This document shows positions 1,645 through 27,366 of a stretch of 31,596 bases of DNA, one piece after another. This stretch comes from a virus. Lineage: Duplodnaviria; Heunggongvirae; Uroviricota; Caudoviricetes. Made by a program: the position numbers and the translations under genes. The first letter of the stretch is position 1. Each line of letters begins with the position of its first letter. The notes below the pieces were generated by a model that saw only the letters and a program-made list of their open reading frames with translations, ran no database searches and had not been told where the DNA came from. The stretch is from IMG/VR virus record IMGVR_UViG_3300034091_000309; one strand, 5' to 3'.

Positions 1645-1709
1645 GAGCAACATGCCCTCCCTTGAAGGGAACCAGCAATGGCTCAAGCCAGGAAATGGCT
1701 TGGGCCATT
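1645..1709 (+). promoter_or_regulatory. two-hairpin leader motif, copy A
   Basis: gagcaacatgc, then small hairpin tccc/ggga, then 13-bp stem aatggctcaagcc/ggcttgggccatt with a GAAA-containing loop. Related to 4533-4616 and 8682-8746. Confidence 0.6.
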
Positions 1710-1735
1710 TCCATTTTCGCTCCCAGAGGCGCAGT

Positions 1736-2086
1736 TTGGAAGTTCTTCCCGATTCGCGATGCAGGGCGCCGAAGGGCATGATTCGGACGGCAGGGGTGAA
1801 TTATGTGCCGATCTTCTGCATGAACTGTGGAAGGCCGGGAGGATTGGTCTCAGAGCGCGGAGTGAACTTCGTGGGCTGGATGTGCGATGCCTGCCAGGAG
1901 AAGTACCCGCTTTTGCCGGGAACCTATGCCGTCCCCGATACCGCCTTCCAGCGCCAGGTGGAGGCGGAGATGGTGGAGAAGCATGGGCGCATTCTCACCG
2001 CCCAAGAGATTGCGGAAGCGCTAAAAGATGAACGCAGCTCGCTGGCGCGGCTGGCCAAGGATCGTCCCGTTTTCGGGAAGAACTAA
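1736..2086 (+). CDS. small Zn-binding protein (CxxC...CxxC), ~116 aa
   Basis: Part of ORF 1643..2086. TTG start at 1736 chosen because a gagg RBS precedes it and the upstream part is occupied by the hairpin motif. Motifs FCMNCG and MCDAC. Confidence 0.65.
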   Translation: MEVLPDSRCRAPKGMIRTAGVNYVPIFCMNCGRPGGLVSERGVNFVGWMCDACQEKYPLLPGTYAVPDTAFQRQVEAEMVEKHGRILTAQEIAEALKDERSSLARLAKDRPVFGKN

Positions 2087-2097
2087 GGAGAAACGTT

Positions 2098-2583
2098 ATG
2101 GCTCAATGCGTCTATGTGGATGGACTGGCAACGCCGGGAAACTTCACAACCAGCGGGTCGGCAAACACGGAAGTCGATGCGATTTATTTTAAGGCCTCCG
2201 CTTCCGGGGGAAGCGTGAACCTGCTGAGGATCGACTGCGGCGGCAAGAGTTCCGGGTTGACCACTCTGACCAGCATCGAACTGCGGGTGAGAACTTATGG
2301 CACAGGATCGACGAGCGGGACGGCGGCTTCCATCGTGCCGGTCGACCCGGCAATCCAGGCGGCGACCCATACCGCCTTCACGGGAGGCACGGCGGGCAGC
2401 ACTCCGAAGTACATGATGAGCCTCGTCATGGGCGCGACAGGGCCCGGCTCATGGTTTGCGCTGAATCCCGACATGGCTCCGAAGCTGGCGCCGGCCAGCA
2501 CTACGGCGTCGCTGGACATTCTTTCCACGTCCGGTGGAACCTCGCTGCCTTTTGTTCTCACGGCGCAGGTCGCTGAACTGTAA
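2098..2583 (+). CDS. putative accessory virion protein (161 aa, T/S/A/G-rich)
   Basis: RBS aaggag upstream; beta-rich composition; operon context. Confidence 0.7.
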   Translation: MAQCVYVDGLATPGNFTTSGSANTEVDAIYFKASASGGSVNLLRIDCGGKSSGLTTLTSIELRVRTYGTGSTSGTAASIVPVDPAIQAATHTAFTGGTAGSTPKYMMSLVMGATGPGSWFALNPDMAPKLAPASTTASLDILSTSGGTSLPFVLTAQVAEL

Positions 2584-2594
2584 CCGGAGATTGA

Positions 2595-3626
2595 ATGCCG
2601 ACATCTACCACCATCCCGATCACGCCAGGTAGCGGAATCAACCTTGACGCCGAACAGCTCACGGTTGGTTCCAATACCGTTGCGCGCGAGAACATCTGCA
2701 TTGCGGACCCGACTGCGGCGGCGAACATTGCCGGAGTAACCGCCGCGGGGCAATTGATCGTCACCAGCAGTTCTTCCGAGATCATCGATCCGAATAACTC
2801 ATCAACCGCTCTTTTGGGAGCCAACGGAGTTTTCACCGGAACCTTTACTGTCGCGACGGGATTCGCTTCTCTGGCGGTGGAGGTGGACACCGACCAGCTC
2901 AGCGCCAACACTTCAACGACCGGTCTGGTGGTGCAATGGTCGGAGGACGGTGTCAATGTCGGCGACGCCGATATTGCTTACATTCTTGCCCAAGACCTTA
3001 TTACGTCGACTTTGGGCGGCCAGACCTATGTTTTTCCTGTGAAGCGCCCGTATTACAGCATCCAGTACACGAACGGCGCAACCGCGCAGACGGTCTTTCG
3101 GCTGCAATGCATCCTGAAGGTCGCGCCGATTGTTGGCGCGTTGACGGACCTGGGCGACGAGATTACCGGCAATATGCACAGCAGCTTGGTCCGCAACCTT
3201 TCGTTTGGCCGGCAGGCGGGCGGCAGTTCCACTTTCCAGGATTTTACGGTAAAGGCGGCATCGACGGCGGCCGTTGCCACCGATCCTGCGCTCGTGGTCG
3301 CAGTCAGCCCGAATAACACCGTTAGCGTGTCGGATGTGGCATCTGCTTCCGCGGGGAACGCCCCAGCGATTATTTCCATTGCGACAAGTTCTACGACGGT
3401 GCTGGCCTCGAACGCAGCGAGAAAAGGCTGCAACCTGATGAACATGAGCAACGAGACGATCAGCTTGGCCTTCGGCAGCAACGCCGCCGTGCTTTACAGC
3501 GGAGCGACGCTGGGACCGGGCGGGGCGTTCTGGATGGATGCGTTTGACTTCACCACCGCCGCCATCAACGCGATCAGCACCAACGTAGCCCAGGGCGGGT
3601 ATCTGGGTGTGCAGGAGTATCAATAA
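2595..3626 (+). CDS. putative accessory virion protein (343 aa)
   Basis: RBS ggag. T/S/A/V-rich. C-terminal domain resembles the 5361..5654 product. Confidence 0.7.
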   Translation: MPTSTTIPITPGSGINLDAEQLTVGSNTVARENICIADPTAAANIAGVTAAGQLIVTSSSSEIIDPNNSSTALLGANGVFTGTFTVATGFASLAVEVDTDQLSANTSTTGLVVQWSEDGVNVGDADIAYILAQDLITSTLGGQTYVFPVKRPYYSIQYTNGATAQTVFRLQCILKVAPIVGALTDLGDEITGNMHSSLVRNLSFGRQAGGSSTFQDFTVKAASTAAVATDPALVVAVSPNNTVSVSDVASASAGNAPAIISIATSSTTVLASNAARKGCNLMNMSNETISLAFGSNAAVLYSGATLGPGGAFWMDAFDFTTAAINAISTNVAQGGYLGVQEYQ

Positions 3627-4504
3627 TGCCTGTACAGAATCCATTCGCGATCAACAACATCGGCAACATCAGCCAGTGGGACGGGACCAATCTCGGTCCG
3701 CCTTCGGCCTACGGAACGCCACCTACCGGCAGCGTGGTTCCCGGCGTCAACGCCAGTTCTGCAATCACAGAACTAGCGGCCACTCTCGGTACGCTGACGG
3801 CGCAATCGGGCGCCAACAGCATCGTCAGCGTCTCGACTATCGGTATGGGCGTGGCCGGCGTGGTGTTGAGCGGCACGTATGGGGCGAACACGGTGGTTGT
3901 TTTCGAGTACACGCAAGACGGCTCGATCTGGGTTCCGGTTTTTGGTGCGCCCAGCTTATCCGCTACGCAGATGGCCACAGTCACGCTGACCGCCAACCAG
4001 ACGTTTCCAATCGATTTTGGAGTTTACGGCTCGACGAACTTTCGTGTCCGCTGCACGACCTATGTGAGCGGTACGATCAATGTCAACATCATCCTCAGCG
4101 CGGCGAACGTCGAGCCAGCGCCGACGGTGGCGGCAATCGTAACGGACGGGGCCGGAAACAGTCTCGGCACGATGTCGGCCTATGGAACCTCTCCGGGCGC
4201 TGTCCTTGCGGTTCCGATCAACGCAAACGTCACTAACACGGTAATGGCAATGGATTCGTCCACGGGTTTGGTCGGGGCGACAGCGCCATCCTACGCCTCA
4301 GCGAATGGATATGCCAATCCGCAAGGATTGGAGACTGCGGTAAGCACATTCAGCCCCTTTCCCATCCAGAGCGACCCACTGCTGCTTCAGGTGGTGGACA
4401 TGCTGGAGCGCATTCTGGCTTGTCTTGAGGCGACGAAAAAGATGAGCGGTTCCGCGTTCGACAACTTCGAGAGAACCGAAGACCACTTTCACGAAATGAA
4501 CTGA
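3626..4504 (+). CDS. putative accessory virion protein (292 aa)
   Basis: TAATG stop/start overlap. Internal repeat LGxxSAYGTxP...P(V/I)NA occurs twice. Confidence 0.7.
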   Translation: MPVQNPFAINNIGNISQWDGTNLGPPSAYGTPPTGSVVPGVNASSAITELAATLGTLTAQSGANSIVSVSTIGMGVAGVVLSGTYGANTVVVFEYTQDGSIWVPVFGAPSLSATQMATVTLTANQTFPIDFGVYGSTNFRVRCTTYVSGTINVNIILSAANVEPAPTVAAIVTDGAGNSLGTMSAYGTSPGAVLAVPINANVTNTVMAMDSSTGLVGATAPSYASANGYANPQGLETAVSTFSPFPIQSDPLLLQVVDMLERILACLEATKKMSGSAFDNFERTEDHFHEMN

Positions 4505-4532
4505 GGACCGAGATCCTCAAACTGAACTTATC

Positions 4533-4616
4533 GAGCGACATGCTCCTCCTTGCGGAGAACAGGCAATGGCTCAAACCGAGAGGGTTTTCAACCCTAGCTA
4601 GGTATGGACCATTTGC
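4533..4616 (+). promoter_or_regulatory. two-hairpin leader motif, copy B (with an extra inserted hairpin)
   Basis: gagcgacatgc, tcc/gga hairpin, gcaatggctcaaacc-GAGA-gggttt, extra cctagctagg palindrome, then tggaccatttgc closing the long stem. Confidence 0.55.
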
Positions 4617-4640
4617 TTTGGCCCGAAAAAGGAGAAGACG

Positions 4641-5291
4641 ATGGCATTGCCGATCACAGGACAGGCGCAGGGACTGGTTCTTGCCGCCTCGCAGAAATCA
4701 GGTCAACCGGCGTCAGTCAGCACAGGTTGGCACAACGAATTATTGCTGACGGAACTTTTACCGCGTTACTCGAATCTCGTTCAAGCGGGCGTAGTCTTCG
4801 AAATCAACTTTCCGGCGGCGGCTTTCGCGGCTCCTTCCGCTACATCCACGGGCGCATTCTTTTTGTTCAATCAGCCCAACAGCGGCAAGAATCTACATCT
4901 GATTGACACGCAGGTGGCTGTGACTACATTCACAGCTATTGCTACAGCTTCAATGGCTGTTGCAATCATTCCTGTGCCGAACCAGACGCCGACTTCTACA
5001 TCGTCTACTGGCGTGACGATTTATAACGCTCTTGTCGGTGCGTCCAACCCAACCGTTGCCAAGGGATACGTCTCTGGAACGCTGGTTGGCGCTCCCGTAT
5101 TGGGTCAGCGCACCATCGCCTCATTCGTCATCCTCACAGCGGTGGGTGCGGGTGCATTGTGGCAAAAAGATGTTATTGATGGTGCGGTGGTCGTGGCTCC
5201 CGGCTCAGGTATCGAAATTCAGTCCGTGAGTGGAACAGAAGCCGACATCACGGGAATTGTTGGGCTGACCTGGGCCGAATTGCCGGTGTAA
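4641..5291 (+). CDS. putative accessory virion protein (216 aa)
   Basis: RBS aaggag. A/T/V/G-rich beta composition. Visibly more T-ending codons than neighbours. Confidence 0.7.
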   Translation: MALPITGQAQGLVLAASQKSGQPASVSTGWHNELLLTELLPRYSNLVQAGVVFEINFPAAAFAAPSATSTGAFFLFNQPNSGKNLHLIDTQVAVTTFTAIATASMAVAIIPVPNQTPTSTSSTGVTIYNALVGASNPTVAKGYVSGTLVGAPVLGQRTIASFVILTAVGAGALWQKDVIDGAVVVAPGSGIEIQSVSGTEADITGIVGLTWAELPV

Positions 5292-5360
5292 GCGTCCGTT
5301 TGTCATCTGGCGGGGGAGGGATGGTAGACGGCCAGCTTCCCCGTAGGGTAGGAGGCTGCG

Positions 5361-5654
5361 TTGATTAACGTCAATGTACAAGCGACGGTTCGCCCCGGCA
5401 ACATTTTTTCCGGGCAGCAGGCCGTGACGACCACGGCGGCGCCTTTGCCTGCAAACATTCTGGCGGCCAGCATCACGGTACAGGCAAGGACCACCAATAC
5501 GATCAGCATTTTTTTGGGTGGAGCGGCTGTTACCACGACAACGGGATTGGAACTACCGCCTGGGGCAGCGATCACTCTTCAAATAACAAATTCAAACGTC
5601 GTGTATGTCGTGGCGGCGAGTACAGGAGCGAATGTGTCATGGGCAGGAAACTGA
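5361..5654 (+). CDS. small single-domain beta protein (97 aa)
   Basis: TTG start after ggagg. Motif NTISIFLGGAAVTTTTGLELPPG. Confidence 0.65.
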   Translation: MINVNVQATVRPGNIFSGQQAVTTTAAPLPANILAASITVQARTTNTISIFLGGAAVTTTTGLELPPGAAITLQITNSNVVYVVAASTGANVSWAGN

Positions 5655-7690
5655 TCTTTGCAGCCGCAATAGCTTTGGTTTTGCTGCTGACTTCGCCAGC
5701 ATGGGCGCAGTATTATCCGCCTGTTACGGGGAAGTCCACGTTCACAAACGCGAACGGCAATGGGCTGGACCAGTTTTATTCAATCCTCCGGCAGTCGCAG
5801 AATGGCGTGGTCCGCATCGTGTCCTTCGGCGACAGCATTATACGATGCTATCAAGTCACGCCCTGCGTCTATGGAGCTTACAACGCCGCAAACAACCCGA
5901 TGATTGGATTGCGGAATGAGCTGCTCAAATACACCGCACAATACTCCACGGGAATGCGTACCCCATTCACCATGGCGCCCATTGGCAATGACAGTGTGGA
6001 TGGCGGCGAGGGCGGGTATGTGCTCACAAGCGGCACCATCACACAATCCAATGCCGGAGGCACCGCCGTCTTCGGGCCTGGACAGACGGGATTCTCATTC
6101 AACGGGAACGCCCTGCTGGAGATGACCACTAGCGGAGGGGTACTGACCATCACGCCGGGTCAGGCATGGACAAGCGTCAACATCTACTGCGTCGAGACCT
6201 CCACCAGCACAGGCTGGACTGTAACTGCTGTAACTGCATTTGCTTCAACCTCTATCGGGACAGCTTGTAATGGCACCACCAGCACCGCAACGGGCTTCAA
6301 TCAGAACTTTTCTACCGCCAGCCTTGAAACATTCTCCTGTTCTTCCTGCACCATCGCGGGCAATGTGCTGACATTGGGCGGGACGATAACGGGCCAACTT
6401 GGCATCGGCGCAACTGTAGCATCGGGATCGGGTGTCACGGTTGGAACGACCGTTGGCCCATTATTGAGCGGCACAGCGAACACCTCCGGGGCCACCTATC
6501 AGCTTTCCGCTTCTTTCACGGTCTCCTCTGGCGAAGCGATGACCTTCAACGGTGGCCTGGTGAGCATTAACTTCACCCTGACCTCGCTGGGCACATCCTC
6601 TTATCTCGGCGGGTACGAGGCAATCACCACAATGGGAACTACAGGCGTCGTGGTGGACGAATTAGGGGAAGCCTCGGCGGTGGCGGCATACTGGACCCAG
6701 AATGCAACCGCCTTGGGTTGGTTCAACCTGCTGCCGGGGAACGTCGCGCTGTGCATCCTGGAGGACGGCGAGAACGATTCGTATAACTCGATTGCCGCAA
6801 ACATCGTAACTGCGAACCTCCAAGTGGTTGCCACAGTCTGCCAGAATCGAGGCGCATCCGTATTGCTGTGGATTCCCCCGCCATGGGGCGGAGCGGTCGC
6901 CGCGTATACCGACATTCAGTTGGCGGAATGGCAATATGGGCAAGCTCCCGCTACCGGGGCACCTTGGGACATCCTCGTGATGGGGGACTTATTTCCCTTT
7001 GGAGGAGTGACGGGAACTTCGGGAGCCGGAGGCACACCGAACTTTCTAGTGCAGAATAACAACACAGGCTATATGGTTGCTGCGCAGTTGCTTGCTACGG
7101 ATAGCGAACACCCCACGGATTTCGGCGCATGTTTGATAACCAACCAGCTATTCCAGCACCTCTCTGGCGGGCGACTCAAATCTCCCTGCTACAACGCGAA
7201 CCCGGAGAACATCCAACAGCAAAATACCCGGACATTGACGGCGGCCTACACGAATGCAAGTACCACATTTAGCCCAATCTGCGAGGCAAGCTGTGTGCAT
7301 ACCTTCGAATACAACATCTCCGCCTTTGAGGTGCTGCATATCGACTGCACCCTCCAGTACCAAGTTTCCGCAACGACGGATGGGCTGATACTAGAGCTGG
7401 CCCAAACCACCGGCTCGGCGACTCCGGTCTTCGTGACGCAGAGCCTTCAGTGGTTCACGTCGGCGACGGCGTACAACAATGCCGGGGTGACTGGCACTGC
7501 CTTCGCTACGCAAATACCGACGACGGGAGTAGCCGCAACCGTCATCACAACGAACTACGTAGCTCATTACACAGCCGTTGTCCAGCAATCGACCACCGTC
7601 AATTCCGCTTCCACGGTCACGGTAGAAGCGAAGGGCGTGGGAACGGGCACACTGACCATCAATGCCGGATCGGCCTGCTACGCATGGTAA
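5639..7690 (+). CDS. SGNH/GDSL-family esterase-like protein with N-terminal signal peptide (683 aa)
   Basis: Block I IVSFGDSI, block III LEDGEND, block V TDSEHP. N-terminus MGRKLIFAAAIALVLLLTSPAWA-Q has signal-peptide form. Confidence 0.7.
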   Translation: MGRKLIFAAAIALVLLLTSPAWAQYYPPVTGKSTFTNANGNGLDQFYSILRQSQNGVVRIVSFGDSIIRCYQVTPCVYGAYNAANNPMIGLRNELLKYTAQYSTGMRTPFTMAPIGNDSVDGGEGGYVLTSGTITQSNAGGTAVFGPGQTGFSFNGNALLEMTTSGGVLTITPGQAWTSVNIYCVETSTSTGWTVTAVTAFASTSIGTACNGTTSTATGFNQNFSTASLETFSCSSCTIAGNVLTLGGTITGQLGIGATVASGSGVTVGTTVGPLLSGTANTSGATYQLSASFTVSSGEAMTFNGGLVSINFTLTSLGTSSYLGGYEAITTMGTTGVVVDELGEASAVAAYWTQNATALGWFNLLPGNVALCILEDGENDSYNSIAANIVTANLQVVATVCQNRGASVLLWIPPPWGGAVAAYTDIQLAEWQYGQAPATGAPWDILVMGDLFPFGGVTGTSGAGGTPNFLVQNNNTGYMVAAQLLATDSEHPTDFGACLITNQLFQHLSGGRLKSPCYNANPENIQQQNTRTLTAAYTNASTTFSPICEASCVHTFEYNISAFEVLHIDCTLQYQVSATTDGLILELAQTTGSATPVFVTQSLQWFTSATAYNNAGVTGTAFATQIPTTGVAATVITTNYVAHYTAVVQQSTTVNSASTVTVEAKGVGTGTLTINAGSACYAW

Positions 7691-7716
7691 GCGAGGGTTG
7701 TATCGCGGAGTGATCC

Positions 7717-8553
7717 ATGCCCCTTGCTGGAATCCTCGCAACCCGTACTTCCGCTGTAACTGCGGCGCTTGACGACGGCAGCGATGGGTGGCTGATAAGC
7801 GTGCAGCAGGGCGCGGCTGCGATTGCCTCCATCCTGGCGCTTAGCCTGGCCACCTTGGCGGCGGCGCAGCAGCCATACATCCCCGACGAACTGCCGATCA
7901 TCTCGGTCGATGAGGCCTACGCGCCGGTTCAGGCCCCGCCGGTCATCCCACCCTGGGCCCTGCCTCAACTTCCTCTCGATGCCGATTACGCTCCGGCGAT
8001 CACGGTAGACGAGCAGGGGCCGATACCCGTTCCGGCTCCCGCGGCGACCTGGAACCTCTTCCCTCTGCCGATCGACGCGGATCAACTGCCCTCGCAGTTG
8101 GACGAGATCTATGCGGTCGGGCCTCAAAGTGTATGGGATCAAGGCTGGACTGTTCCGGTTCCGGTTCCCGATCCAGAGTATGCTCCTTCGATCTCAGTCG
8201 AAGAAGCATATCTGGTTCCGATAGCTCCAGTCCAAGCGCCGTGGAGTTTCCAACAGATCACTGCCGATACGGACTATGTTCCCCCTCCATCTTTTGGGCT
8301 GGAGGAGCCGTACCGGACCGACTCGGCGGCACCATGGGATGTGCGCTGGGTGCTGGCTCCCGACCAGTACACGGCGGAGGTCGTGCCCTACACGCCACCG
8401 GCCTTTTGTCCGGATGAGGTGTACCAGGTCAACCTCGCCGCTCCCTGGGAGGCCGGAAATCTGGCTCTGCAGCAGCAGATCTTTCCCGATGAATTTCTGC
8501 CCTCGACGCGCAAGGCATCACTGGTGATCTGGATTGTAGACGATTTTGCATGA
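7717..8553 (+). CDS. Pro/Asp/Glu-rich repeat protein (278 aa)
   Basis: About six imperfect ~35-aa repeats of the form I.(V/L)(D/E)E.Y...PW...D.Y after a hydrophobic segment. Confidence 0.65.
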   Translation: MPLAGILATRTSAVTAALDDGSDGWLISVQQGAAAIASILALSLATLAAAQQPYIPDELPIISVDEAYAPVQAPPVIPPWALPQLPLDADYAPAITVDEQGPIPVPAPAATWNLFPLPIDADQLPSQLDEIYAVGPQSVWDQGWTVPVPVPDPEYAPSISVEEAYLVPIAPVQAPWSFQQITADTDYVPPPSFGLEEPYRTDSAAPWDVRWVLAPDQYTAEVVPYTPPAFCPDEVYQVNLAAPWEAGNLALQQQIFPDEFLPSTRKASLVIWIVDDFA

Positions 8554-8584
8554 CCACCGCGCGGACGAAAGCGCAATTGAAGCG

Positions 8585-8613
8585 TTGCTACAGGCCGCGG
8601 TTAAGGATAGTAT
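8585..8613 (+). promoter_or_regulatory. putative sigma70-type promoter
   Basis: TTGCTA-17 nt-TAGTAT upstream of the ejection-protein genes. Confidence 0.4.
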
Positions 8614-8634
8614 GTAGGCGCAAGAAGAATCGGC

Positions 8635-8671
8635 CAGCCCAGCGAACAGAAATCGTTCGCCGGGGACCTCG
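8635..8671 (+). repeat. 37-nt REP-like hairpin repeat, copy 2 (intergenic, variant loop)
   Basis: cagcccagcgaac-agaaatc-gttcgccggggacctcg; most like the copy at 14158. Confidence 0.65.
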
Positions 8672-8681
8672 ATCATCATGT

Positions 8682-8746
8682 GAGCGACATGCCCCCCCGA
8701 ATGGGGAAGAAGCAATGGCTCAACCAGAAACGGTTGGGCCATTGCT
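8682..8746 (+). promoter_or_regulatory. two-hairpin leader motif, copy C
   Basis: gagcgacatgc, cccc/gggg hairpin, then 15-bp stem agcaatggctcaacc/ggttgggccattgct with loop agaaac. Confidence 0.6.
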
Positions 8747-8769
8747 GTTTCTGGCCCAAGGGGGACGGT

Positions 8770-9333
8770 ATGAGTTTTTGGAGTTCGTTGTTCGGCGGGC
8801 AAAACCCGACCCTGAACCAGGACATCGCGCAGTTCGGGCAGATCGGCGGCTTCGCCACCAACCTGGGCGAGAGCAACCTGAGCCAGGCGAGCCAGTTCTG
8901 GTCGTCGCTGCTGTCGGGAGACCAGTCGAAGATCGCCAAGACCCTGACCCCGGAGATCAACACCATCCAGCAGCAGGGCGCGCAACAGAGAGCCACCACG
9001 GCGCAGTTCGGCAACCGCGGCGGAGGAACCAACGCAGCGATGCAGATGGTGGGCGACACCTCGCGGGCCAGCATCAACGACATGATCGCGAAGCTGCTGG
9101 GCAGCTCGGCCAGCAACCTGGCCAGCACCGGCGGCGGTCTGCTGGGCACAGCCGTGGGAGCCTTCGGTGCGCAGGAGGCGGCCAGCCAGCAGCGGATGCG
9201 GAACTGGGCCAACAGCATTCTGGGCCACGGAATCACCACCAGCTTCCAGACGGGTGAAGAGCTTGGGGAGCAGTATCTGACCGGCGGGACCTCGGCCTCC
9301 AATGCCTATCCCAGCGGCGGATTGGGCAACTAA
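8770..9333 (+). CDS. putative ejection/pilot (DNA-transfer) protein (187 aa)
   Basis: ATG at 8770 after a ggggg RBS (in ORF 8680..9333). G/A/Q/N/S-rich helical composition typical of small internal virion proteins. Confidence 0.65.
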   Translation: MSFWSSLFGGQNPTLNQDIAQFGQIGGFATNLGESNLSQASQFWSSLLSGDQSKIAKTLTPEINTIQQQGAQQRATTAQFGNRGGGTNAAMQMVGDTSRASINDMIAKLLGSSASNLASTGGGLLGTAVGAFGAQEAASQQRMRNWANSILGHGITTSFQTGEELGEQYLTGGTSASNAYPSGGLGN

Positions 9334-11466: not shown

Positions 11467-13958
11467 TGGCACAGATCACTCCAGAGCAGGCGATTGAGCA
11501 GCTTCGGAAACTCCCCGAGGACCGGCAGAGGGCTGTGCTGGGACGGCTGACGCTGGAGGCCAAGCAGGGCATCCTAGCCAAACTCAAGACGCCCGATTTC
11601 ACCGCTCAGGTCAATGTGCGAACCGTGAACGGCAAGCAGGTCGGCGAGGGGTTATACCAAATGGCGGGCCCGGATGGGAGCTTTGTCGGTGTGCCCTACA
11701 GCCAAGTCATGCCCGCCTCGCAGGCGGGGTGGAAGATCAAGCCCGAGGACCGGGAGCGGTTTGCCAGGGATCGCACGGAGGCGCTCAAGAGAAAGATCGA
11801 AGGACCGGCACAACCCTGGTACAAGACCATCTTGCCCGGACAGCCGAAGAGGCCGGTTCTGACCGAAGCCGAGTTCCGGGCGCAGGGTCCGCTGCCAGAG
11901 GTGGCGCCGCAGGAGCCGGGATGGTGGCAGAAAACAGAAGCTAAAGTGCAAGCGGCGACACAGCCGACAAACCTTTTTCCCGGTATGCCGACCAGCCAAT
12001 ACGACCCCGCTCTTGGCGAAGCGGCATTGAATACCATCAAGCGGGTGGGAGCTGTACTCTTTGGCGTGGCTGACTTCGGTCCGCAGGCATGGGGCGCCTT
12101 GAAGGAAGCGATTTCCGATGATCCCGAAAAGGCTCAGGCGGGGGAGACGCGACTGCTGGAGATGCACCCCGGCGCGCAGATCCAGGCGCGGGTAAAGGAG
12201 TTGCGCGACGACTTCCGCACCGATCCCAAGCTGGCATTGACAAATATGGTCGGGGACGTGGCTGGCATGTGGCTGGCAGGGAAGATCGGGGGAAAAGTTG
12301 CTCATCCAATCAAGAGTTTAGCTGAACTTCGGGATACCGCAGCGAAGCGAGTTGCGCTGCCCGCCGCCAAGGTCATGACCGGCGCCGGTCCGCGCGGAGT
12401 CGGAAAGCTGGTTCGGGAAACGCAGACGGAAAACCTTGCCGGGGCCGAGAAGGCTGCGACGGCGACCAAGGAATACCACAAGGACATTGGCGAAACGATT
12501 CAGGCCAATCGAAGAGTAGCCGCCGGCGAGGCAGCGCGGAGTCAAGCTGCCAGCGATGTTCAGGTCAAGGGAAGCCAGCTCATGACTGGCATCAAGGCGC
12601 TGGAAAAGCGTGTGCGTGCCACGGCCAGCGAAAAATACGAGGCCGTAAAGGCCAAAGTTGGCGAGGACACAGATCCCCGCGGGCTTCTGATGGACGATGT
12701 ACGGGCCGCGCAGGAGAAGTGGATTCGTGGTTCGCCCGAAAAAATCAAAGAATTTCAGGCTGTCTTACAGCCACCGAAAACGTCGCCGGCACAGTTGCTT
12801 GCGGACCAGACCGCGCAGAACCTGGGTTACAAGAACTTTGCGGAGGCAATTACAGATCCGCAGATGCGCGATACGCTCCGTCGCGCACTGCCTCCCGAGG
12901 TCTTCGAGGAAGCGACGACGGGCGCGGGAGGCACATTGGGCTGGAACGATTACCAGGGATTCTACGAGGAGACTGGAGCGAAACTGGCGCCTGGGGATCT
13001 GCCTCCGGACATCTTCAAGGCTGTGCAGGAGGTCCACGAAAAAGTCTGGAACCGCATGGAAGCCATGGCTCGGCGTCACGATGCGCTGCCACAGTGGTAC
13101 GACGCCAAAAACTACTACCGCCAGTTCATGGAGACATTTCATGATGCGACGGGGCCAAGCGGCAGTGCATCGCCGGTCGCGCAGGCGTTTCTTGCGAAAG
13201 ATCCCGCAACGGCCGCAAAGTTCTTTCTGGGCAACGCAGGAGATCGCGCGGTTAATCTATTGTCCCGTTACGATCCGCAGCTCACCCGTTTGGCTCAGGA
13301 GTTGCGTCAGAGCCGCGAGACGGCGAAGGTTGCGCCGAAGGGCACACGGAAGGAACTCCCGCCGGTGCCGGAATCCACAAAGTTCACGCCCCGCACTCTC
13401 TCGCCGGAAGACATTCGCGCACGGCATCGCGCTGACGTTCAAGCCACTGCCGATCTCATGGCAAACCTCGGCCGGAGGAGAGTGGACTGGAGCCTCCTCA
13501 CCGCTGGAGGTGGTCTCATTGCGCTTCTTGGCGAATTCAAGGGCGTGGGTCTGCTCGAACTGGCCGGTGGAGGCGCAGTTGCCGCGCCATTTGTTTCGGA
13601 CGCATTTGCAAGTTTTTTGGAACGCCCCGGCGTGATTGCCCGGCTGGAGCGCATCACGCCGGCGGACATTGACAAAGTTCCGCCGGAATTGAGGTCACAG
13701 GCACTTCAGGATCTGCGACCGCTGCTGATAGGGGCTCACGGAAGGGGAGCAAAAATCAATCCTGCGGTGTGGGCCTTGGCGATGGGCGCCTCTGCGGCTG
13801 GGCGCCAACCGCAGAAGTCGTTGAAGGAACTGCGGGATGAGGCCGACAAGCGCAAAGCGCCGGCAACCGCCGCGGCGCCGCCCGGTCCGCAGTCTTCCGC
13901 GCAGCCCTATACGCACATCTTCGATGAAGCGACCAACTCCATTGTTCCGGTGCAATGA
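11466..13958 (+). CDS. putative ejection/internal virion protein (830 aa)
   Basis: TAATG overlap. Long A/K/E-rich helical protein with a hydrophobic segment near the C-terminus. Shares a ~90-aa domain with the next gene. Confidence 0.65.
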   Translation: MAQITPEQAIEQLRKLPEDRQRAVLGRLTLEAKQGILAKLKTPDFTAQVNVRTVNGKQVGEGLYQMAGPDGSFVGVPYSQVMPASQAGWKIKPEDRERFARDRTEALKRKIEGPAQPWYKTILPGQPKRPVLTEAEFRAQGPLPEVAPQEPGWWQKTEAKVQAATQPTNLFPGMPTSQYDPALGEAALNTIKRVGAVLFGVADFGPQAWGALKEAISDDPEKAQAGETRLLEMHPGAQIQARVKELRDDFRTDPKLALTNMVGDVAGMWLAGKIGGKVAHPIKSLAELRDTAAKRVALPAAKVMTGAGPRGVGKLVRETQTENLAGAEKAATATKEYHKDIGETIQANRRVAAGEAARSQAASDVQVKGSQLMTGIKALEKRVRATASEKYEAVKAKVGEDTDPRGLLMDDVRAAQEKWIRGSPEKIKEFQAVLQPPKTSPAQLLADQTAQNLGYKNFAEAITDPQMRDTLRRALPPEVFEEATTGAGGTLGWNDYQGFYEETGAKLAPGDLPPDIFKAVQEVHEKVWNRMEAMARRHDALPQWYDAKNYYRQFMETFHDATGPSGSASPVAQAFLAKDPATAAKFFLGNAGDRAVNLLSRYDPQLTRLAQELRQSRETAKVAPKGTRKELPPVPESTKFTPRTLSPEDIRARHRADVQATADLMANLGRRRVDWSLLTAGGGLIALLGEFKGVGLLELAGGGAVAAPFVSDAFASFLERPGVIARLERITPADIDKVPPELRSQALQDLRPLLIGAHGRGAKINPAVWALAMGASAAGRQPQKSLKELRDEADKRKAPATAAAPPGPQSSAQPYTHIFDEATNSIVPVQ

Positions 13959-16900
13959 TGCCTGAGCCTCAACCCAAAAACGCGGAGCGCCGCAAACTCG
14001 TGAAGGTCAAAGATCTGGGCGTAGTCGCCTTCCCCTTTCACCTGTCCGACGATAAGATCGTTGCGGCCATCCGGACACATCGCGGGCAGACCCATGCCGC
14101 TCCTCCGCACTTCACGGGAAAGACAACGGAGGAGTCGGAACATGCGCGGTTAATGGCCACCCCACGAAGCAAAGATCGCTTCGCGGGGACCCCGGTAGCC
14201 AATGTGCCGCAGGTCACTCCCGATTGGAACACGCTACGCCAAGCGGTCTACAAGGCGACCGAGCCGGTGTTGATGAATCCCAATACCACGCCCACTGCGG
14301 ACACCTGGGCGGCGAATCGCGACGCCGCATGGAACGCGGCGGCCAACGCAGCCAATGTGGGAGGAAACGTTCTGAAGCGGGCCGGCCGCTTCATGTTTGG
14401 GTTGGTGGACTTGGTTCCGCAGGTGGTGGGGATCGTCAAGAACCTCTACTCCCCCGACGAGAGGGTCTCCGCGCAGGCCGAGGCTGATCTGCTGAGTCTG
14501 CATCCCGGCGCGCAGATCGCGGACCGGCTGAAAGAGGCGGTGCAGGATTGGCGTAGATCGAAGAGTTTGGCGGCGGAGAATCTGCTGGGCGATCTGCTGG
14601 GCTTTTACTTGGTGGGAAAGATTGGCGGGAAGGTTCCAGCCGCAGAAAAGGCACGATTGCAGCAGATGGGCGTCGTCCTGCCGCCGGAGGCGCCGGCGGA
14701 GCCTTTGGGACTGCCGGCGCCAGCCCCGCCAACGATTGAAGGAACTCTTTCACCCCACGGACGTGGACCTGTCCGTGGGGACCCCGGTTCGCTGCCCAAG
14801 CCGCCACGGCCGGCGCCATTGCCTTCGCCTGCCGGTCTGAGGCCGGTGGAAGTGACGGCCAATCTTTCACCCCAACGACGTGGACCTGTCGTTGGGGGCC
14901 CCGAACTACGGCTGACGCAGCCCAAGCCGGTGAGTTTGGCGGAGTTGCGCAAAGAGGCGGCGATGCGCAGACCGCAAGCGAAGGAGCAGCTCGTTGCGCA
15001 GCAGACTGCGAAGCCATGGAAAAAGAGCGGTGCCGAGTTGGGTACTCTCTACCACGGGAGCAAGGTAAAGGTTGGCGAGATCGATTTGGCTCAGGTGGGC
15101 CAGCGTGACTCTGGGCTCTATGGCCGTGGCTTCTACATGACGGAGAAGCCGAAGTGGGCGAAGACTTATGGGCCTAGAGTGACGGAGAAGCAGTTGAGAT
15201 CTGATGCGCAGGTACTCGACGTGGGCACGATCCATCCTCAGTACGAGCAGAAGGTCAACCCCGCATTGCAGACGGAAATCGAGGGAGTGGAACGGCAAGG
15301 ACTGCAACAAGCCAAGAACACTAAGGACCGGCCGGAGAAGATTGAAGGCTATCTGGAGATGATCCGGCCTCAGTCGCCGACCTTCAACCTGGGAATGTGG
15401 ATCGCGGCAGTGCATCGCTACGCTGAGATGAATGGTTACGATGTGATCCGTTTCAGCCCGGCGGAAGTGATTGTCAAGAATGCGAATGCGGTTCTGTCTG
15501 CACCAGCAGCCGTGGCAGCACCTGCGGCGATGCCAGCGACTGCACCTGTGCCATCGGCGATGCCAGTGACAGAACCAGCGCTGGCGGCGACACCAGTTCC
15601 TAAGCCGGCGGCGACACCAACGGCAGCACCAGCGGCGGCGGCACCCGTCGACGTGGCGATGAACCTGACGTACAAGGGAGCGGGCGGTACGCAGCCGTTC
15701 TATCTGAAGAGCGAGAAGCTGCTGGGCGAGAAGATGAAGGGGCCGATGCCGGCCGGCGATATTGCCAAGATGCTGTTGGCGAACGGTGTGAAGCCGGAAG
15801 AGATGAAGTGGACGGGGATGGAGGAGTTCCTCAAGGAGAAGGGCGAGGCCAAGGTGACGCCGGAGGAGATGCGGCAGCACTTGGCGGCAAACAACTTAGA
15901 GTTGAAAGAAGTAAGAAAGGGCGAAGGAAGCATAACGCTAAAACGGGCCGCTGACACCGCCTACGATAAATTCTATCAGTTAGCTGAGAAGGACTTTGGT
16001 CACGAGGCCGGAGCTATTGCGCGTGAAATTCAAGAGGGCGGTCAAAGTTCGCGCGAGATTATTGCGAAATGGATGAGGGATACTGGCCATGTGCCCGGCG
16101 AGATGCCATCTGATGATCTCTTAGAGGCTGCTCGGAACCTTTTTAATGCGCAGCGCACCTACGCAGAAGCTGAGGCCTACGGTGGACCAAAGTTCGGCAC
16201 CTGGGTTATGCCCGGTGGAGAGAACTACCGCGAGTTGCTGGTGACGTTGCCAGAGAACCAAATCACGGAGAGCGATCTGGCAAAGTATTTTGAACCGGGG
16301 AAAATCGTCGAGGGATATGCCGGCAAAGACAAAGTCATCGCGTTCCACCCATCAAGTGAACAGCGTTTATGGAGCGTAGATGTTATCCATGTGGATAATA
16401 ATGGAAATCCTCTCCCTGGGGAGCATGTGCGGAATCATGCAACGCAGCCAGACTTAAACAAGCTGGGCAAAACTAACTTCCGCACCTCTCACTGGGACGA
16501 GCCAAATGTACTCGGCCATGTGCGCTTCAATGACCGCACCGGGCCGAACGGGGAGAAGCTGCTGCACCTGGAGGAATTGCAGAGCGACTGGCACGAAAAA
16601 GGGAGAAAGGGCGGATACGGATCAATAGGCCCGCCCGATACGACAGGCTGGAAGGCAACAAAGACGGAAGATCATCCAGAGTCGTGGATTGTAGCTGATG
16701 CCTCTGGAGATCAGATTAGTATTGGTGGTCGCAATTTATTCTACGGCAGAACTGCTGAAGAAGCCATTGCTGATGCTGCTCGTATAAAGCAGACCGGAGC
16801 AGGCCGAGAGCTTCGTGTGCCCGATGCCCCGTTCAAGAAGACTTGGCCGGAGCTGCTGCTAAAGCGAATGATTCGCTACGCGGCGGAGAACGGCTATGAC

Positions 16901-18868
16901 GGCATCTCCTGGACTCCCGGCGAGGAGCAGGCGGAGCGGTATGATCTGAGCAAGCAAATTGATCGTGTAGCCTACCAGCCGAGAAGCGATAACCGCACAG
17001 CCCTCTGGATCACAGGGAAAAACGGGGAAGTTCTGCAAGACACCATCGGGGAGCGGATTCCGGGATCTAGTTGGGATGATAGTGAGAAGGCCATCGTCGT
17101 TCCGAACACCGCGCTGCCCGACCTAGTTGGCAAGGAACTCACCGAAAAGATTCAGAAGGGCGAAGGTGCGGACTCTTACGGAGGAGCCAAGATATTCAGT
17201 GGTCTCGACCTGAAAGTTGGCGGGGAGGGGATGAAGGGTTTCTACGACCAGATGCTGCCCATCATAGCTAACAAGATCGGCAAACCGTGGGACGCGAAGG
17301 TTGACAGCATAGACCTTGGCGGACGGCAGTTCCGCGTGGAACGGTCTCCGGATTTGTCCTACAGGATTATCGACAGCGATGGAGTGGACCTCACAGGGAA
17401 GAATTTCTTTGATACCAGATCAATGGCGCAACATTATGCTGATGAATTGCAGAAGGTTGAGCCTCCAGGCACTGTTCCCTACCTGCCCATCACGCCCCAG
17501 ATGCGAGAAGGCGTAACGGCGCAGCCACTGAGCCTCTTCAACTTGATCTACAAGGCGCCCCCCGCGAAGCCGGCGGAGATTGCCGATGCATGGAGGCAAC
17601 TGGGCGACATTCGAAACGAGTTGTACAAGATGCCGCCGCCGGAGGAGCCCGACCTGAGCACTCCGGAGAATATGCTGGCATGGAAGCATAGACATCAGGA
17701 ATGGCGCCAAAAGGCGCAACCCTGGCTGGACAAGTACCGGGCTGCAACTGGAAGAATCCAGTATCTGGAGAACCGGGAGATTGGAGAGGTTCGCGCCCTG
17801 CCGGACGGCCAGAAGGTGCTGTACCTGAGCGGATACGGATTGAGAACTCTGTGCGCGGGCATCCGCGCAGATGTTAATCCCGCGTACACGCTGAATGGAG
17901 CCTCGCTCACCGCGTGGGATGTGGAGGCGATCGGGAGAATTGCGGAGGCGATGGATCTGACCTTCGGCAAAGAGCTGCGAGAGCTGCTGGCGGTCGCCAA
18001 AGACAAGGATGGAAATGTCACCGTGGCCGCGATTCCGGAGAAGGGCCAGAGTCTGCGCGCGTCGCTGGGAGTTCTCCGGGAGGAGTTGAACCATACTTGG
18101 CAGAAACGTTTCGGGGATGTGGGGAGCGGGCATCTATCAGCGCAGCGCTTTGAAGAGTTGAATGCCGCCATTCCGCAAGGCATGATGGATGATCTGCGCC
18201 AGAACAGGTACAATATGGAGGCCAGCGAGAAGGGCAACCAGATACGTGTGCTGGAGACCAGCTCCAAGCTGCTGAGCGAGGCGCCAGCAAAATTCGGGTT
18301 GACGGAAGACGAAGCCGCCGTGTATCTCTTCCAGTATTTCGACGCCGTGGAAAAGGAACACGGGCCGAAGGCGCTGGAGCAACTGATCCACATCACGCGG
18401 CTCGGCAAGCAGATCAAGGAGGATTTCATCCATGGAAGGCAGGGGACCGGCGGAGGAGCAGAAGATCGAGGAACTTTGGGCCGCGTACAAGAGCGGGGGG
18501 CTAGCCGGGATCAAGGAGGTCCTTCGCCGGCGAGACGAGGAGCACCTGAAGGAGAAGGCACCGCAGGAGGTGGGGCCACCGGCCCAGGCATAACGCTGAA
18601 TCTGCAGCAGCAGATGACGCCGGTGGCGACCGGGGTTGCAATCCACGGCGTTCGCGCTGACGCGGACAAGGTAGTGAACATCCTAGAAGGCGCGAAGAAG
18701 CGCAACCCCCTACCCGTGGGGAGCAACCTGCCGGCCGCGATACACCCCGCCGACGTGGACCTGTCGGCGGGGACCCCGGCCGCGCCCAAGCCCATCAAGA
18801 CACTCTGGGAACTCCGGCAAGAGGCCACGCGGCGCCGGCCGCACGAGCAAACAAAAATCATGAAATGA
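13955..18868 (+). CDS. giant internal virion / polyvalent-type protein (1637 aa) with an ADP-ribosyltransferase-like domain
   Basis: ATGA overlap. ART-like YHG...GLYGRGFYMT...A..Y...E at ~15040-15490. Motif series HLEELQSDW / PDAPF / GYDGI / GMKGFYD. Degenerate zincin-like LREELNH near 18075. Confidence 0.7.
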   Translation: MMPEPQPKNAERRKLVKVKDLGVVAFPFHLSDDKIVAAIRTHRGQTHAAPPHFTGKTTEESEHARLMATPRSKDRFAGTPVANVPQVTPDWNTLRQAVYKATEPVLMNPNTTPTADTWAANRDAAWNAAANAANVGGNVLKRAGRFMFGLVDLVPQVVGIVKNLYSPDERVSAQAEADLLSLHPGAQIADRLKEAVQDWRRSKSLAAENLLGDLLGFYLVGKIGGKVPAAEKARLQQMGVVLPPEAPAEPLGLPAPAPPTIEGTLSPHGRGPVRGDPGSLPKPPRPAPLPSPAGLRPVEVTANLSPQRRGPVVGGPELRLTQPKPVSLAELRKEAAMRRPQAKEQLVAQQTAKPWKKSGAELGTLYHGSKVKVGEIDLAQVGQRDSGLYGRGFYMTEKPKWAKTYGPRVTEKQLRSDAQVLDVGTIHPQYEQKVNPALQTEIEGVERQGLQQAKNTKDRPEKIEGYLEMIRPQSPTFNLGMWIAAVHRYAEMNGYDVIRFSPAEVIVKNANAVLSAPAAVAAPAAMPATAPVPSAMPVTEPALAATPVPKPAATPTAAPAAAAPVDVAMNLTYKGAGGTQPFYLKSEKLLGEKMKGPMPAGDIAKMLLANGVKPEEMKWTGMEEFLKEKGEAKVTPEEMRQHLAANNLELKEVRKGEGSITLKRAADTAYDKFYQLAEKDFGHEAGAIAREIQEGGQSSREIIAKWMRDTGHVPGEMPSDDLLEAARNLFNAQRTYAEAEAYGGPKFGTWVMPGGENYRELLVTLPENQITESDLAKYFEPGKIVEGYAGKDKVIAFHPSSEQRLWSVDVIHVDNNGNPLPGEHVRNHATQPDLNKLGKTNFRTSHWDEPNVLGHVRFNDRTGPNGEKLLHLEELQSDWHEKGRKGGYGSIGPPDTTGWKATKTEDHPESWIVADASGDQISIGGRNLFYGRTAEEAIADAARIKQTGAGRELRVPDAPFKKTWPELLLKRMIRYAAENGYDGISWTPGEEQAERYDLSKQIDRVAYQPRSDNRTALWITGKNGEVLQDTIGERIPGSSWDDSEKAIVVPNTALPDLVGKELTEKIQKGEGADSYGGAKIFSGLDLKVGGEGMKGFYDQMLPIIANKIGKPWDAKVDSIDLGGRQFRVERSPDLSYRIIDSDGVDLTGKNFFDTRSMAQHYADELQKVEPPGTVPYLPITPQMREGVTAQPLSLFNLIYKAPPAKPAEIADAWRQLGDIRNELYKMPPPEEPDLSTPENMLAWKHRHQEWRQKAQPWLDKYRAATGRIQYLENREIGEVRALPDGQKVLYLSGYGLRTLCAGIRADVNPAYTLNGASLTAWDVEAIGRIAEAMDLTFGKELRELLAVAKDKDGNVTVAAIPEKGQSLRASLGVLREELNHTWQKRFGDVGSGHLSAQRFEELNAAIPQGMMDDLRQNRYNMEASEKGNQIRVLETSSKLLSEAPAKFGLTEDEAAVYLFQYFDAVEKEHGPKALEQLIHITRLGKQIKEDFIHGRQGTGGGAEDRGTLGRVQERGASRDQGGPSPARRGAPEGEGTAGGGATGPGITLNLQQQMTPVATGVAIHGVRADADKVVNILEGAKKRNPLPVGSNLPAAIHPADVDLSAGTPAAPKPIKTLWELRQEATRRRPHEQTKIMK
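14158..14194 (+). repeat. 37-nt REP-like repeat, copy 3 (in CDS, reads TPRSKDRFAGTP)
   Basis: caccccacgaagc-aaagatc-gcttcgcggggaccccg. Confidence 0.8.
14751..14786 (+). repeat. 36-nt REP-like repeat, copy 4 (in CDS, reads PHGRGPVRGDP)
   Basis: Perfect 10-bp stem ccccacggac/gtccgtgggg, loop gtggacct, tail acccc. Confidence 0.9.
14868..14903 (+). repeat. 36-nt REP-like repeat, copy 5 (in CDS, reads PQRRGPVVGGP)
   Basis: Perfect stem ccccaacgac/gtcgttgggg, loop gtggacct. Confidence 0.9.
18743..18778 (+). repeat. 36-nt REP-like repeat, copy 6 (in CDS, reads HPADVDLSAGTP)
   Basis: Perfect stem ccccgccgac/gtcggcgggg, loop gtggacct. Confidence 0.9.
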
Positions 18869-24620: not shown

Positions 24621-24869
24621 TTGATGCTGCACAGGGCGACGCTGATAAGCCGGTCGACGCGGGACGGATGGGACGTGATCGAGGATGATGTTCCGCTGGG
24701 CAAGGTTTACTATGTGGACTTGGAAAGCGTGGCCGTGTTCTGGCATGGGCTGGTGGAGCGCCCCGGCGAATGTGTGGAGCGGGAGTGCATCCGGGCCTAC
24801 AACACGCCCCAGGGCGGCGATGGAGGCTACATGCCGCTGGAGTTGTTGAAAATCGAGGCGAAGGCATGA
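24621..24869 (+). CDS. hypothetical protein (82 aa)
   Basis: Protein-like composition; stop overlaps the next ATG. Confidence 0.6.
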   Translation: MMLHRATLISRSTRDGWDVIEDDVPLGKVYYVDLESVAVFWHGLVERPGECVERECIRAYNTPQGGDGGYMPLELLKIEAKA

Positions 24870-25675
24870 AAGAAGAGAAAGAAATGCGCCAGTGGGGAAT
24901 CAACGATAGCCAATACCGGCCGATCGGCTTGACTGCGGCGAAGATCAAGGCCGGGGTCTACGAGTTCGAGTACGACATGGGCTTATTCCTTGCTCCGGTC
25001 GAGGTGGTGACGGACGATCTGATCGAGTTGCCCGATCCGACCTGCGCACAGGTCCTGGCGGGGATCGAAAGGTTCTGGGCCATGGAAAGCCGCTACCGGA
25101 AGCACGGGCTGCTTTACAAGCGCAGCGTGGGGCTTCAGGGTCCGCCGGGAGGCGGCAAGACGGCCACGCTGATCCTGCTGGGCCGGAGGCTGATCGCTCT
25201 GGATGGGCTGGTCATTATGTTCAACAGCTACGCCGAGAAGGGTTTGGCCTTGCTGCGCAAGATCGAGCCCCAGCGCCGGATTGTCTGCATCATGGAAGAG
25301 CTGGATGACATCCTCGAAAACGACGAGAGCGAGGTGTTGTCGTTGCTGGACGGGGAGACGCAGGTGGATGGTATCGTCTATGTGGCGACGACCAACCACT
25401 TCGATAAATTGCCGGCCACGATCATCAACCGGCCCTCCCGCTTTGACGAGTGGATCGAGGTGGGAATGCCCTCGCCGGCCTGCCGGCGGGTGTATCTGGA
25501 GAAGATAGCGCCCAGCCTGACCAGAAACCAGAGAACGCGCTGGGTGCGGGATACGCAGGGATTTTCGGTGGCACATTTGAAAGAATTGGCTGCGGCCGTA
25601 CTGTGCCTCGATTATCCTTATGAGCAAGTGCTGAAACGGCTGCGGGGGATGCTGAAGGCAGAAAGCAAGGAGTGA
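24866..25675 (+). CDS. AAA+ ATPase, classical AAA clade (269 aa)
   Basis: Walker A GPPGGGKT, Walker B CIMEELD, sensor-1 ATTNH, SRH RPSRFD. Confidence 0.85.
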   Translation: MKEEKEMRQWGINDSQYRPIGLTAAKIKAGVYEFEYDMGLFLAPVEVVTDDLIELPDPTCAQVLAGIERFWAMESRYRKHGLLYKRSVGLQGPPGGGKTATLILLGRRLIALDGLVIMFNSYAEKGLALLRKIEPQRRIVCIMEELDDILENDESEVLSLLDGETQVDGIVYVATTNHFDKLPATIINRPSRFDEWIEVGMPSPACRRVYLEKIAPSLTRNQRTRWVRDTQGFSVAHLKELAAAVLCLDYPYEQVLKRLRGMLKAESKE

Positions 25676-26094: not shown

Positions 26095-26610
26095 ATGAGC
26101 CTGATTCACAAACCCGTGCTGGTGGTGAATGCGACCTTTGAGCCGCTGGAGATCACCCCTGCCCGCAATGCGCTCAAAAAGATCGTGAAGAGAAAGGCGG
26201 TCATCGAGCTGCGGGAGGGAGAGCAGGACGTGTATCCCGGCATCCCCCTGCCTTCGGTCATCCGGCTGGTGGAGTACCGGCGGGTCCCGGAGCACATGAC
26301 CAAACTCTCCAAGAAGAACTTCTACCTGCGGGACCACTACCACTGCCAGTATTGCGGGGTGCGATTCGAGCCGCGGGATCTGACGCTGGACCACGTGATA
26401 CCGAAGTCGCGCGGAGGTCCGAGTTCCTGGGAAAACATGGTGACCTGCTGCAAAGGCTGCAATCGCCGCAAGGGCTCGAAGACCCTGGCCGAGGCGGGCA
26501 TGAACCTGCTGCACAGTCCCAAGCCGCTGACCGTTCACACCAGCCGGCACCTTATGCGCCGGCTGGGCATGGACGAGGATGAGCGGTGGGGGACGTACTT
26601 GTATGCGTGA
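26095..26610 (+). CDS. HNH endonuclease (McrA-like, 171 aa)
   Basis: RDHYHCQYCG...LTLDHVIPKSRGG...WENMVTCCKGCNRRKG. Confidence 0.9.
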   Translation: MSLIHKPVLVVNATFEPLEITPARNALKKIVKRKAVIELREGEQDVYPGIPLPSVIRLVEYRRVPEHMTKLSKKNFYLRDHYHCQYCGVRFEPRDLTLDHVIPKSRGGPSSWENMVTCCKGCNRRKGSKTLAEAGMNLLHSPKPLTVHTSRHLMRRLGMDEDERWGTYLYA

Positions 26611-27282: not shown

Positions 27283-27366
27283 GCCGATGTGGTGGAACTG
27301 GCAGACACACCGTCCTCAAAAGGCGGCGCCCAAGGCATAGGGGTTCGATCCCCCTCGTCGGCACCA
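27283..27366 (+). tRNA. tRNA-Leu(CAA)
   Basis: Acceptor gccgatg/cgtcggc, loop ct-CAA-aa, variable arm, T loop ttcgatc, CCA. Confidence 0.93.

Follow-up and report, generated by a model that had tools for sequence, protein, structure and literature searches.

A leader RNA with two predicted, mutually exclusive folds ahead of virion gene blocks in uncultivated soil phages

The DNA analysed here is a window of 31,596 nucleotides (nt) from the Caudoviricetes virus record IMGVR_UViG_3300034091_000309. It carries three copies (A, B and C) of an intergenic leader that belongs to an undescribed RNA family of uncultivated soil (Acidobacteriota) phages and is located ahead of blocks of virion genes. 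As judged from aligned sequences, the leader has two mutually exclusive folds, called X and Y, which are both kept by compensating mutations. Fold X is the predicted ground state and would mask the Shine-Dalgarno (SD) sequence of the gene that follows. Our tentative reading, to which we give somewhat less than an even chance, is that the motif is a bistable RNA that controls whether ribosomes can reach the binding site of the gene opening a virion block.

The window corresponds to the minus strand of positions 66434-98029 in a 134,250-bp IMG/VR virus record that has direct terminal repeats and a G+C content of 59%. An earlier description of the window (the original prediction), made from its letters alone, reported three copies of a motif starting with GAGCRACATGC. 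This block is indeed present at 1645, 4533 and 8682, and a second shared block, GCAATGGCTCAA, was found at 1675, 4563 and 8712 with 0 mismatches in all three copies; when up to 2 mismatches are allowed, the latter has 10 matches in the window against 3.6 expected from shuffles. As was also described, the copies lie between genes and end shortly before plausible start codons (TTG 1736, ATG 4641 and ATG 8770); the distance is 24-27 nt. The count of three proved too low. Exact-pattern and degenerate searches and a covariance model made from seven copies (R1) revealed 8 same-strand copies in the 134-kb phage genome and none beyond these. All are on the + strand of the window, inside 37 kb carrying virion genes, and reverse-strand R1 scores are ~23 bits as compared to ~90 bits on the + strand.

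The leaders have a length of 85-110 bases and a common order of parts: seg1 (GAGCRACATGC), a small C/G-rich hairpin (P1), a linker that contains GAA, seg2 (GCAATGGCTCAAG), an apical stretch called seg3 (for example CAGAAATGG), seg4 (CTTGGGCCATT) and a short tail with a T-run at its end, followed in most copies by the SD and the start codon. Seg2 and seg4 form a long stem with a GNRA-like apical loop (GAAAU or GAGAU). Two T columns of the tail are invariant across the copies of this genome, and some copies have a perfectly palindromic seg1 (GGCATGCC). Seg1 does not recur in antisense orientation elsewhere in the genome, which makes a trans-acting complementary RNA unlikely. The original prediction lacked the five other copies of the leader, the pairing of P1 with the SD, and the hairpin of the apical loop with seg4 and the tail.

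IMG/VR was scanned with sequence patterns and then searched with the R1 model, which led to 61 matches (alignment A6) and 135 more (alignment A7), together 196 matches with 106 distinct cores. These are distributed over about 45 related IMG/VR contigs, each of which carries between one and seven, and in every record that was searched whole the copies are all on one strand. In a scan of genome contigs, where most pattern matches were due to chance, 5 genuine matches on 4 loci were present in genome bins among the first 100 of 120 pattern loci; one of these is on a 602-kb contig of an uncultured Acidobacteriaceae bacterium. The motif had been called unrecognised, and database searches agree with this. 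With the whole window as query, Rfam 15 returned only tRNAs at gathering thresholds, and at E values up to 10 the lone overlapping match in six loci around the copies was psaA in one copy, with 19.3 bits against a threshold of 50. Searches of GenBank phages with 12 kb of the window (megablast) and with a single copy of the leader (blastn) gave no match.

Five helices show compensatory change or cognate-specific pairing: seg2:seg4, P1, seg1:seg2, seg3 with seg4 and tail, and P1 with the SD. The covariation of the stems that was suggested originally is borne out by the first two. In A6, 94% of cells in the long seg2:seg4 stem are paired and 6 of its pairs differ on both sides; the figures for A7 are 99% and 5. 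The P1 hairpin has 3 (A6) and 4 (A7) such two-sided changes. Shuffled and slid controls stayed far below these values. The proposed alternative pairing of GAGC..CATGC with GC(A)ATG-GCTC, which corresponds to seg1:seg2, is also confirmed, with 96% of cells paired and two compensatory pairs. Variants of the CATGC block of seg1 (positions 7-11; CGCGC, CACGC, CTCGC) co-occur with a matching seg2 in 6 of 6 cases (seg2 variants GCAGCGG, GCAACGG, GCGATGG, GCATGG), and all 105 of 105 canonical seg1 sequences are accompanied by canonical seg2. The variants are found ahead of different genes, and the orthologues of these genes elsewhere have the canonical sequence in front of them, which indicates several independent changes. 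G-U pairs are frequent, with U-G at one stem position in 39/53 and 49/82 sequences. Because these would be A-C mismatches on the other strand, they fit an RNA transcribed from the + strand only.

The 3′ half of seg4, together with the 3-4 tail bases that follow it, is complementary to seg3. The identity of the first tail base (T or G) varies in step with an A or C of seg3 and not with the linker. The loop and one arm of P1 are complementary to the SD region of the cognate gene, with CTCCTTGGGG:CCCCAAGGAG, CCTCGCC:GGCGAGG, CTTCGA:TCGAAG and CTTCGG:CCGAAG as clear cases. Both pairings were examined by a cognate test in which duplex energies of own and permuted partners were compared for 61 representatives, one per cluster at 88% identity. 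Seg3 with seg4 and tail gave z = -9.7 and P1 with the SD region z = -5.2, while control pairs of the same relatedness (P1 with open reading frame (ORF) sequence; seg3 with the SD region) were not significant, with z between -0.2 and -1.0. The tail gave no cognate pairing signal with the GAA linker. As a source of the seg3 signal, a loop-tail pseudoknot was rejected on geometric grounds, since the apical loop and the start of the tail are at opposite ends of a 13-17-bp stem. Any change in seg2 or seg4 would have to be compensated in two partner strands, which explains their strong conservation without a protein.

These helices can be arranged in two ways. In fold Y, seg1:seg2 encloses the closed P1 hairpin, the seg3:seg4 hairpin follows, and the SD is not paired by the motif. 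In fold X, seg1 is single-stranded, and the long seg2:seg4 stem continues beyond its base to a closing helix of P1 with the SD. Unconstrained folding of full leaders gave fold X, with 7-10 P1:SD pairs in most copies. By constrained folding, X is favoured by 4.9 kcal/mol if the RNA ends after the U-run and by 11.9 kcal/mol if it extends to the start codon. Direct-path estimates put the barrier near 16 kcal/mol for Y to X and near 29 kcal/mol for the reverse; these are upper-bound predictions only.

The position of the leader relative to promoters and genes is also conserved. A promoter of the sigma70 type (TTGACA/TTGACG, a spacer of 16-19 nt, TAnnnn) is located 13-16 nt before seg1 in 53 of 111 distinct copies, as compared to 3/111 in a control scan on coding sequence; in those transcripts the motif is thus the very 5′ end. 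Promoterless copies follow a stop codon, and this group includes A, B, C and three further copies of the same genome. Start codons most often follow the end of seg4 after 27 nt, where the distribution has a sharp peak (37/108), and after 20-38 nt in about 85% of cases. In 33 of the 61 cluster representatives, counted in the leaders alone, the base before the start codon is C. The resulting CATG is self-complementary with the CATG of seg1; seg1 and the start-codon region gave no cognate-specific pairing signal (z = -0.5).

What would differ between the folds is the availability of the anti-SD sequence in P1, which is sequestered in Y and can cover the SD in X. Taken with the constant distance to the start codon, this suggests that initiation of translation is the step under control. 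Fold Y, in which all helices are local, would form first during transcription and leave the SD free; the nascent RNA would pass through Y and then relax to X, as in the maturation-gene leader of phage MS2 (see below). Alternatively, a phage or host factor might shift the balance between X and Y. In either case, fold X would block translation and fold Y would allow it. The phage-specific cis-regulatory RNA that had been proposed thus stands as an unrecognised, probably fold-switching RNA that acts on its own transcript ahead of virion-module genes, and among the mechanisms that were listed for it a translational switch fits best, in view of the P1:SD pairing and the start-codon spacing.

Several points weigh against such a gate. 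Fold energies, barriers and the masking of the SD are predictions. In copy A every part is present and the P1:SD pairing is weak, with a TTG start that is only probable, and in a few copies the SD is 60-86 nt away. The invariant U-run after seg4, which resembles the tail of a terminator, has no explanation by pairing. Finally, there is no obvious rationale for limiting the translation of the most abundant virion proteins.

The window copies differ in how closely they follow the family pattern. Copy B is the weakest (46.8 bits against about 87), and the second alternative hairpin is not predicted for it. The extra hairpin noted in this copy corresponds to an apical insertion of ~17 nt. Copy B may be a degenerate or simplified member of the family. 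In copy C the P1:SD helix is strong, with -20.7 kcal/mol for the cognate duplex against a mean of -10.1 kcal/mol with other SD regions, and the alternative hairpin is shifted. Just upstream of copy C is a G+C-rich hairpin ending in GGGGACC(T/C)C. Such hairpins were also seen 3′ of three other copies in the genome (loci L013 and L012), inserted inside the leader region between leader and SD, with the leaders still intact.

Table 1. Positions of leader parts, genes behind the leaders and other features (window numbering unless a locus is given).
Feature	Position	Strand	Basis or remark
Copy A, whole leader, seg1 to putative TTG start at 1736	1645..1738	+	R1 90.2 bits; no sigma70-like promoter upstream
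Copy A, seg1 GAGCAACATGC, partner strand of seg2 in fold Y	1645..1655	+	seg1:seg2 covariation
Copy A, small hairpin P1, 5 bp, 3-nt loop	1658..1670	+	predicted fold; P1 pairs covary family-wide
Copy A, long seg2:seg4 hairpin, ~13 bp, GGAAAT in loop	1675..1709	+	predicted fold; covariation
Copy A, alternative hairpin, apical seg3 GGAAATGGC with GCCATTTCC, then ATTTTC	1691..1712	+	predicted, -14.3 kcal/mol
Copy B, whole leader to ATG at 4641; variant with apical insertion and weakened long stem	4533..4643	+	46.8 bits
Copy B, P1 hairpin, CTCC/GGAG	4543..4557	+	predicted fold
Copy B, CTCCTT complementary to SD AAGGAG	4546-4551 with 4629-4634	+	duplex and predicted fold
Copy B, seg2:seg4 hairpin with inserted apical hairpins, without seg3:seg4 alternative	4563..4613	+	predicted folds
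Copy C, whole leader to ATG at 8770	8682..8772	+	86.7 bits
Copy C, P1 hairpin, CCCC/GGGG	8695..8706	+	minimum free energy (MFE) fold
Copy C, C-run pairing with SD-region GGGGG	8693-8697 with 8760-8764	+	cognate duplex -20.7 kcal/mol; MFE fold
Copy C, long seg2:seg4 hairpin, loop AGAAAC	8712..8745	+	predicted fold
Copy C, alternative hairpin, seg3 with tail, 11 bp	8724..8754	+	predicted, -15.5 kcal/mol
G+C-rich hairpin ending GGGGACC(T/C)C	about 8637-8672		upstream of copy C
42-amino-acid (aa) basic, Arg/Lys-rich peptide, first gene after a genome copy	L013:9834-9962	-	then terminase large subunit (phrog_5989)
34-aa Arg/Lys-rich peptide, first gene after a genome copy	L013:3673-3777	-	
Major head protein behind a genome copy			phrog_9953, E = 3.5e-5
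81-aa DUF6582-like protein behind a genome copy			below Pfam cut-off
1252-aa protein behind a genome copy			
Three window genes behind copies A, B and C			unannotated
116-aa ORF after copy A	1736-2086		weak PknG_rubred and Zn_ribbon_10 matches, all below Pfam cut-offs
Copy of this genome whose promoter region has the A/T box	L013:3788-3876		
1637-aa protein	13955-18868		weak DUF3990 / ART-PolyVal stretch, residues 364-501, below Pfam cut-offs
AAA ATPase	24770-25675		
HNH endonuclease	26095-26610		
vWA-domain protein	28962-29783		
tRNA genes (seven)	27283-27363, 27804-27893, 28068-28157, 28269-28356, 29796-29869, 30498-30570, 31355-31426		long variable arms in four

The same helices could serve other mechanisms. 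In a transcription attenuator, seg3:seg4 and the U-run would be an intrinsic terminator, seg2:seg4 the antiterminator and seg1:seg2 an anti-antiterminator, and a phage or host factor would decide on read-through into the late genes. The covariation behind the multi-strand alternative pairing agrees with this, as do the stability of seg3:seg4, which averages -13.4 kcal/mol over about 10 bp and is followed by (A/C)UUU(U), and the invariant T columns of the tail noted above. Strong host-type promoters directly upstream would need a default-off gate. The seg3:seg4 hairpin is followed by 3-5 U, often after one non-U base; terminator-like sites elsewhere in the phage also have only U4-5, with stronger stems, and the alternative hairpin of copy A appeared in the output of a terminator scan as well. 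However, seg4 is the 3′ arm in both folds, and in more than half of the copies the long stem abuts the U-run as closely as the alternative hairpin or closer. In constrained folds of an RNA ending at the U-run, the 3′ boundaries of the two hairpins are mostly within 3 nt of each other, in either direction. Since both folds thus present a shared 3′ arm against the U-run, the switch does not clearly remove the terminator, which weakens the case for attenuation. Furthermore, the alternative hairpin of copy C absorbs the U-run into its stem, so that no U-tract follows the hairpin, the commonest tail (AUUUCA) is a weak U-tract, and both the P1:SD covariation and the fixed spacing to the start codon are left unexplained. 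We consider an attenuator rather unlikely. RNA processing is a distinctly less probable role: an RNase III-like cut of the rod-like fold X, an imperfect duplex of ~30 bp, would release the SD from its anti-SD strand and in this way switch on or stabilise the individual late cistrons. Copies occur both beside promoters and between cistrons, MFE folds give a long irregular hairpin, and phage T7 has about ten RNase III sites, several of which are just after promoters. For cleavage a second fold would be superfluous, but covariation shows that seg1:seg2 and seg3:seg4 are maintained, and the high conservation is already explained by the two partners of each strand.

Very improbable, in our view, is processive antitermination of the put or nut type, in which the folded nascent RNA, with or without a small arginine-rich phage peptide, modifies RNA polymerase so that it passes terminators further 3′. 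Similar to putL, the leader has two hairpins in about 75 nt just downstream of promoters (PMC9378689), its apical loop is GNRA-like, and basic peptides of 34 and 42 aa are encoded by the first genes after two of the copies. On the other hand, half of the copies are promoterless, no Rfam family was matched, the leader has two folds as opposed to the one two-stem fold described for put (PMC9378689), and both pairing and spacing link it to the ribosome-binding site that follows. The two exclusive folds and this tie to the ribosome-binding site make the put-like element of the original prediction unlikely. An element acting at the DNA level (late promoter, operator, recombination site), or a gene for a leader peptide with the conserved ATG of seg2 as its start, hardly deserves credence. 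Both could draw on the conserved sequence blocks; the palindromic seg1 of a subset would suit the former, and the resemblance of GGRGAA-N6-ATGGCT to a ribosome-binding site with start codon the latter. However, the frequent G-U pairs and the low reverse-strand scores do not fit DNA, and the helices covary while the sequence varies. The late promoter that had been suggested is not supported; promoters, where present, are separate sigma70-type boxes (TTGACA-N17-TAnnnT) upstream of the motif, and A, B and C have none. The leader peptide was rejected: the mini-ORF is found in all frames (33/37/34) and has no conserved length or stop, with stops scattered or absent.

A bolder version of the translational gate, which we think unlikely, would be that one RNA device, without a dedicated protein, times or limits translation of every virion block of a large double-stranded DNA (dsDNA) phage. 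Ribosomes could translate a transcript only for as long as it is in the co-transcriptional fold Y; toehold-like strand exchange, starting from CAAG/CUUG bases that are unpaired in Y, would then lock it into X. As a variant, the Arg/Lys-rich peptides of 34-42 aa might bind the GNRA-like apical loop and flip the switch, giving an autoregulatory late circuit; lambda N binds boxB, and arginine-rich peptides bind boxB-type loops.

The genes behind the leaders are listed in Table 1. The original label of late genes is appropriate for the virion module as a whole and not gene by gene; the terminase large subunit and the major head protein are encoded behind copies other than A, B and C. For the genes adjoining A-C, PHROGs and Pfam searches gave no match except the weak zinc-ribbon hints in the ORF after copy A. 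Some 15 nt before the -35 element, promoters of the gene for the small basic protein have a conserved A/T box similar to TTTTGTAA, which was seen at related loci, for example L134, L165 and L190; other leader promoters have an AAAAAGG run at this position. Both may be UP elements or activator sites. Elsewhere in the window, the 1637-aa protein has a weak ADP-ribosyltransferase-like stretch, and an AAA ATPase, an HNH endonuclease and a vWA-domain protein are encoded downstream of the virion block. The window also carries tRNA genes.

The leader family bears on late-gene control in phages of Acidobacteriota, a dominant and barely cultivated soil phylum. Two exclusive folds that are both backed by natural compensatory mutations are rare outside riboswitches and a few textbook leaders. 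If a translational gate is correct, kinetic gating of translation would extend from the RNA phage MS2 to large dsDNA phages and whole virion modules, and the leader would offer synthetic gene control a small, portable element. The family has enough members to form an Rfam entry, and such a short RNA lends itself to host-free in vitro tests.

Among known systems, the RNase III sites of T7 are similar in being repeated, related irregular hairpins before cistrons, located after promoters and between genes. Those sites are not known to depend on alternative folds. Attenuators such as the trp leader, the PyrR type and the L20/infC type with its anti-antiterminator (PMC1865079) share with the leader four strands with mutually exclusive pairings, a 5′ helix resembling an anti-antiterminator, and a hairpin followed by a U-run. 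The leader differs in that it lacks a conserved leader peptide and has an extra helix with the SD, and in that the competing long stem shares the 3′ arm of the terminator, not the 5′ arm, so that the U-run is not freed. The putL and putR elements of HK022 are likewise nascent RNAs of about 70 nt with two stem-loops just 3′ of a sigma70 promoter (PMC9378689). They occur at two early promoters only, have one functional fold and act on the zinc-binding domain of RNA polymerase beta′ (PMC9378689), whereas the leader described here is located at virion genes, is promoterless in half of its copies and has two folds. Put has no link to a ribosome-binding site, and no sequence likeness to the leader was seen. 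The MS2 maturation-gene leader has its SD covered at equilibrium by a complementary sequence located further 5′; while the RNA is being made, a metastable hairpin postpones this pairing (PMC4615214). There is no sequence or structural homology between the two leaders; the one described here occurs in a dsDNA phage with host-type promoters, in 8 copies per genome and before genes for abundant virion proteins, and its transient fold would comprise three helices (seg1:seg2, P1 and seg3:seg4), with kinetics that are only predicted. In both, the equilibrium fold appears to contain a long-range helix of an upstream sequence with the SD that encloses hairpins, both folds are conserved, and a local hairpin, which here is P1 within the covarying seg1:seg2 helix, holds the upstream sequence in the exclusive fold.

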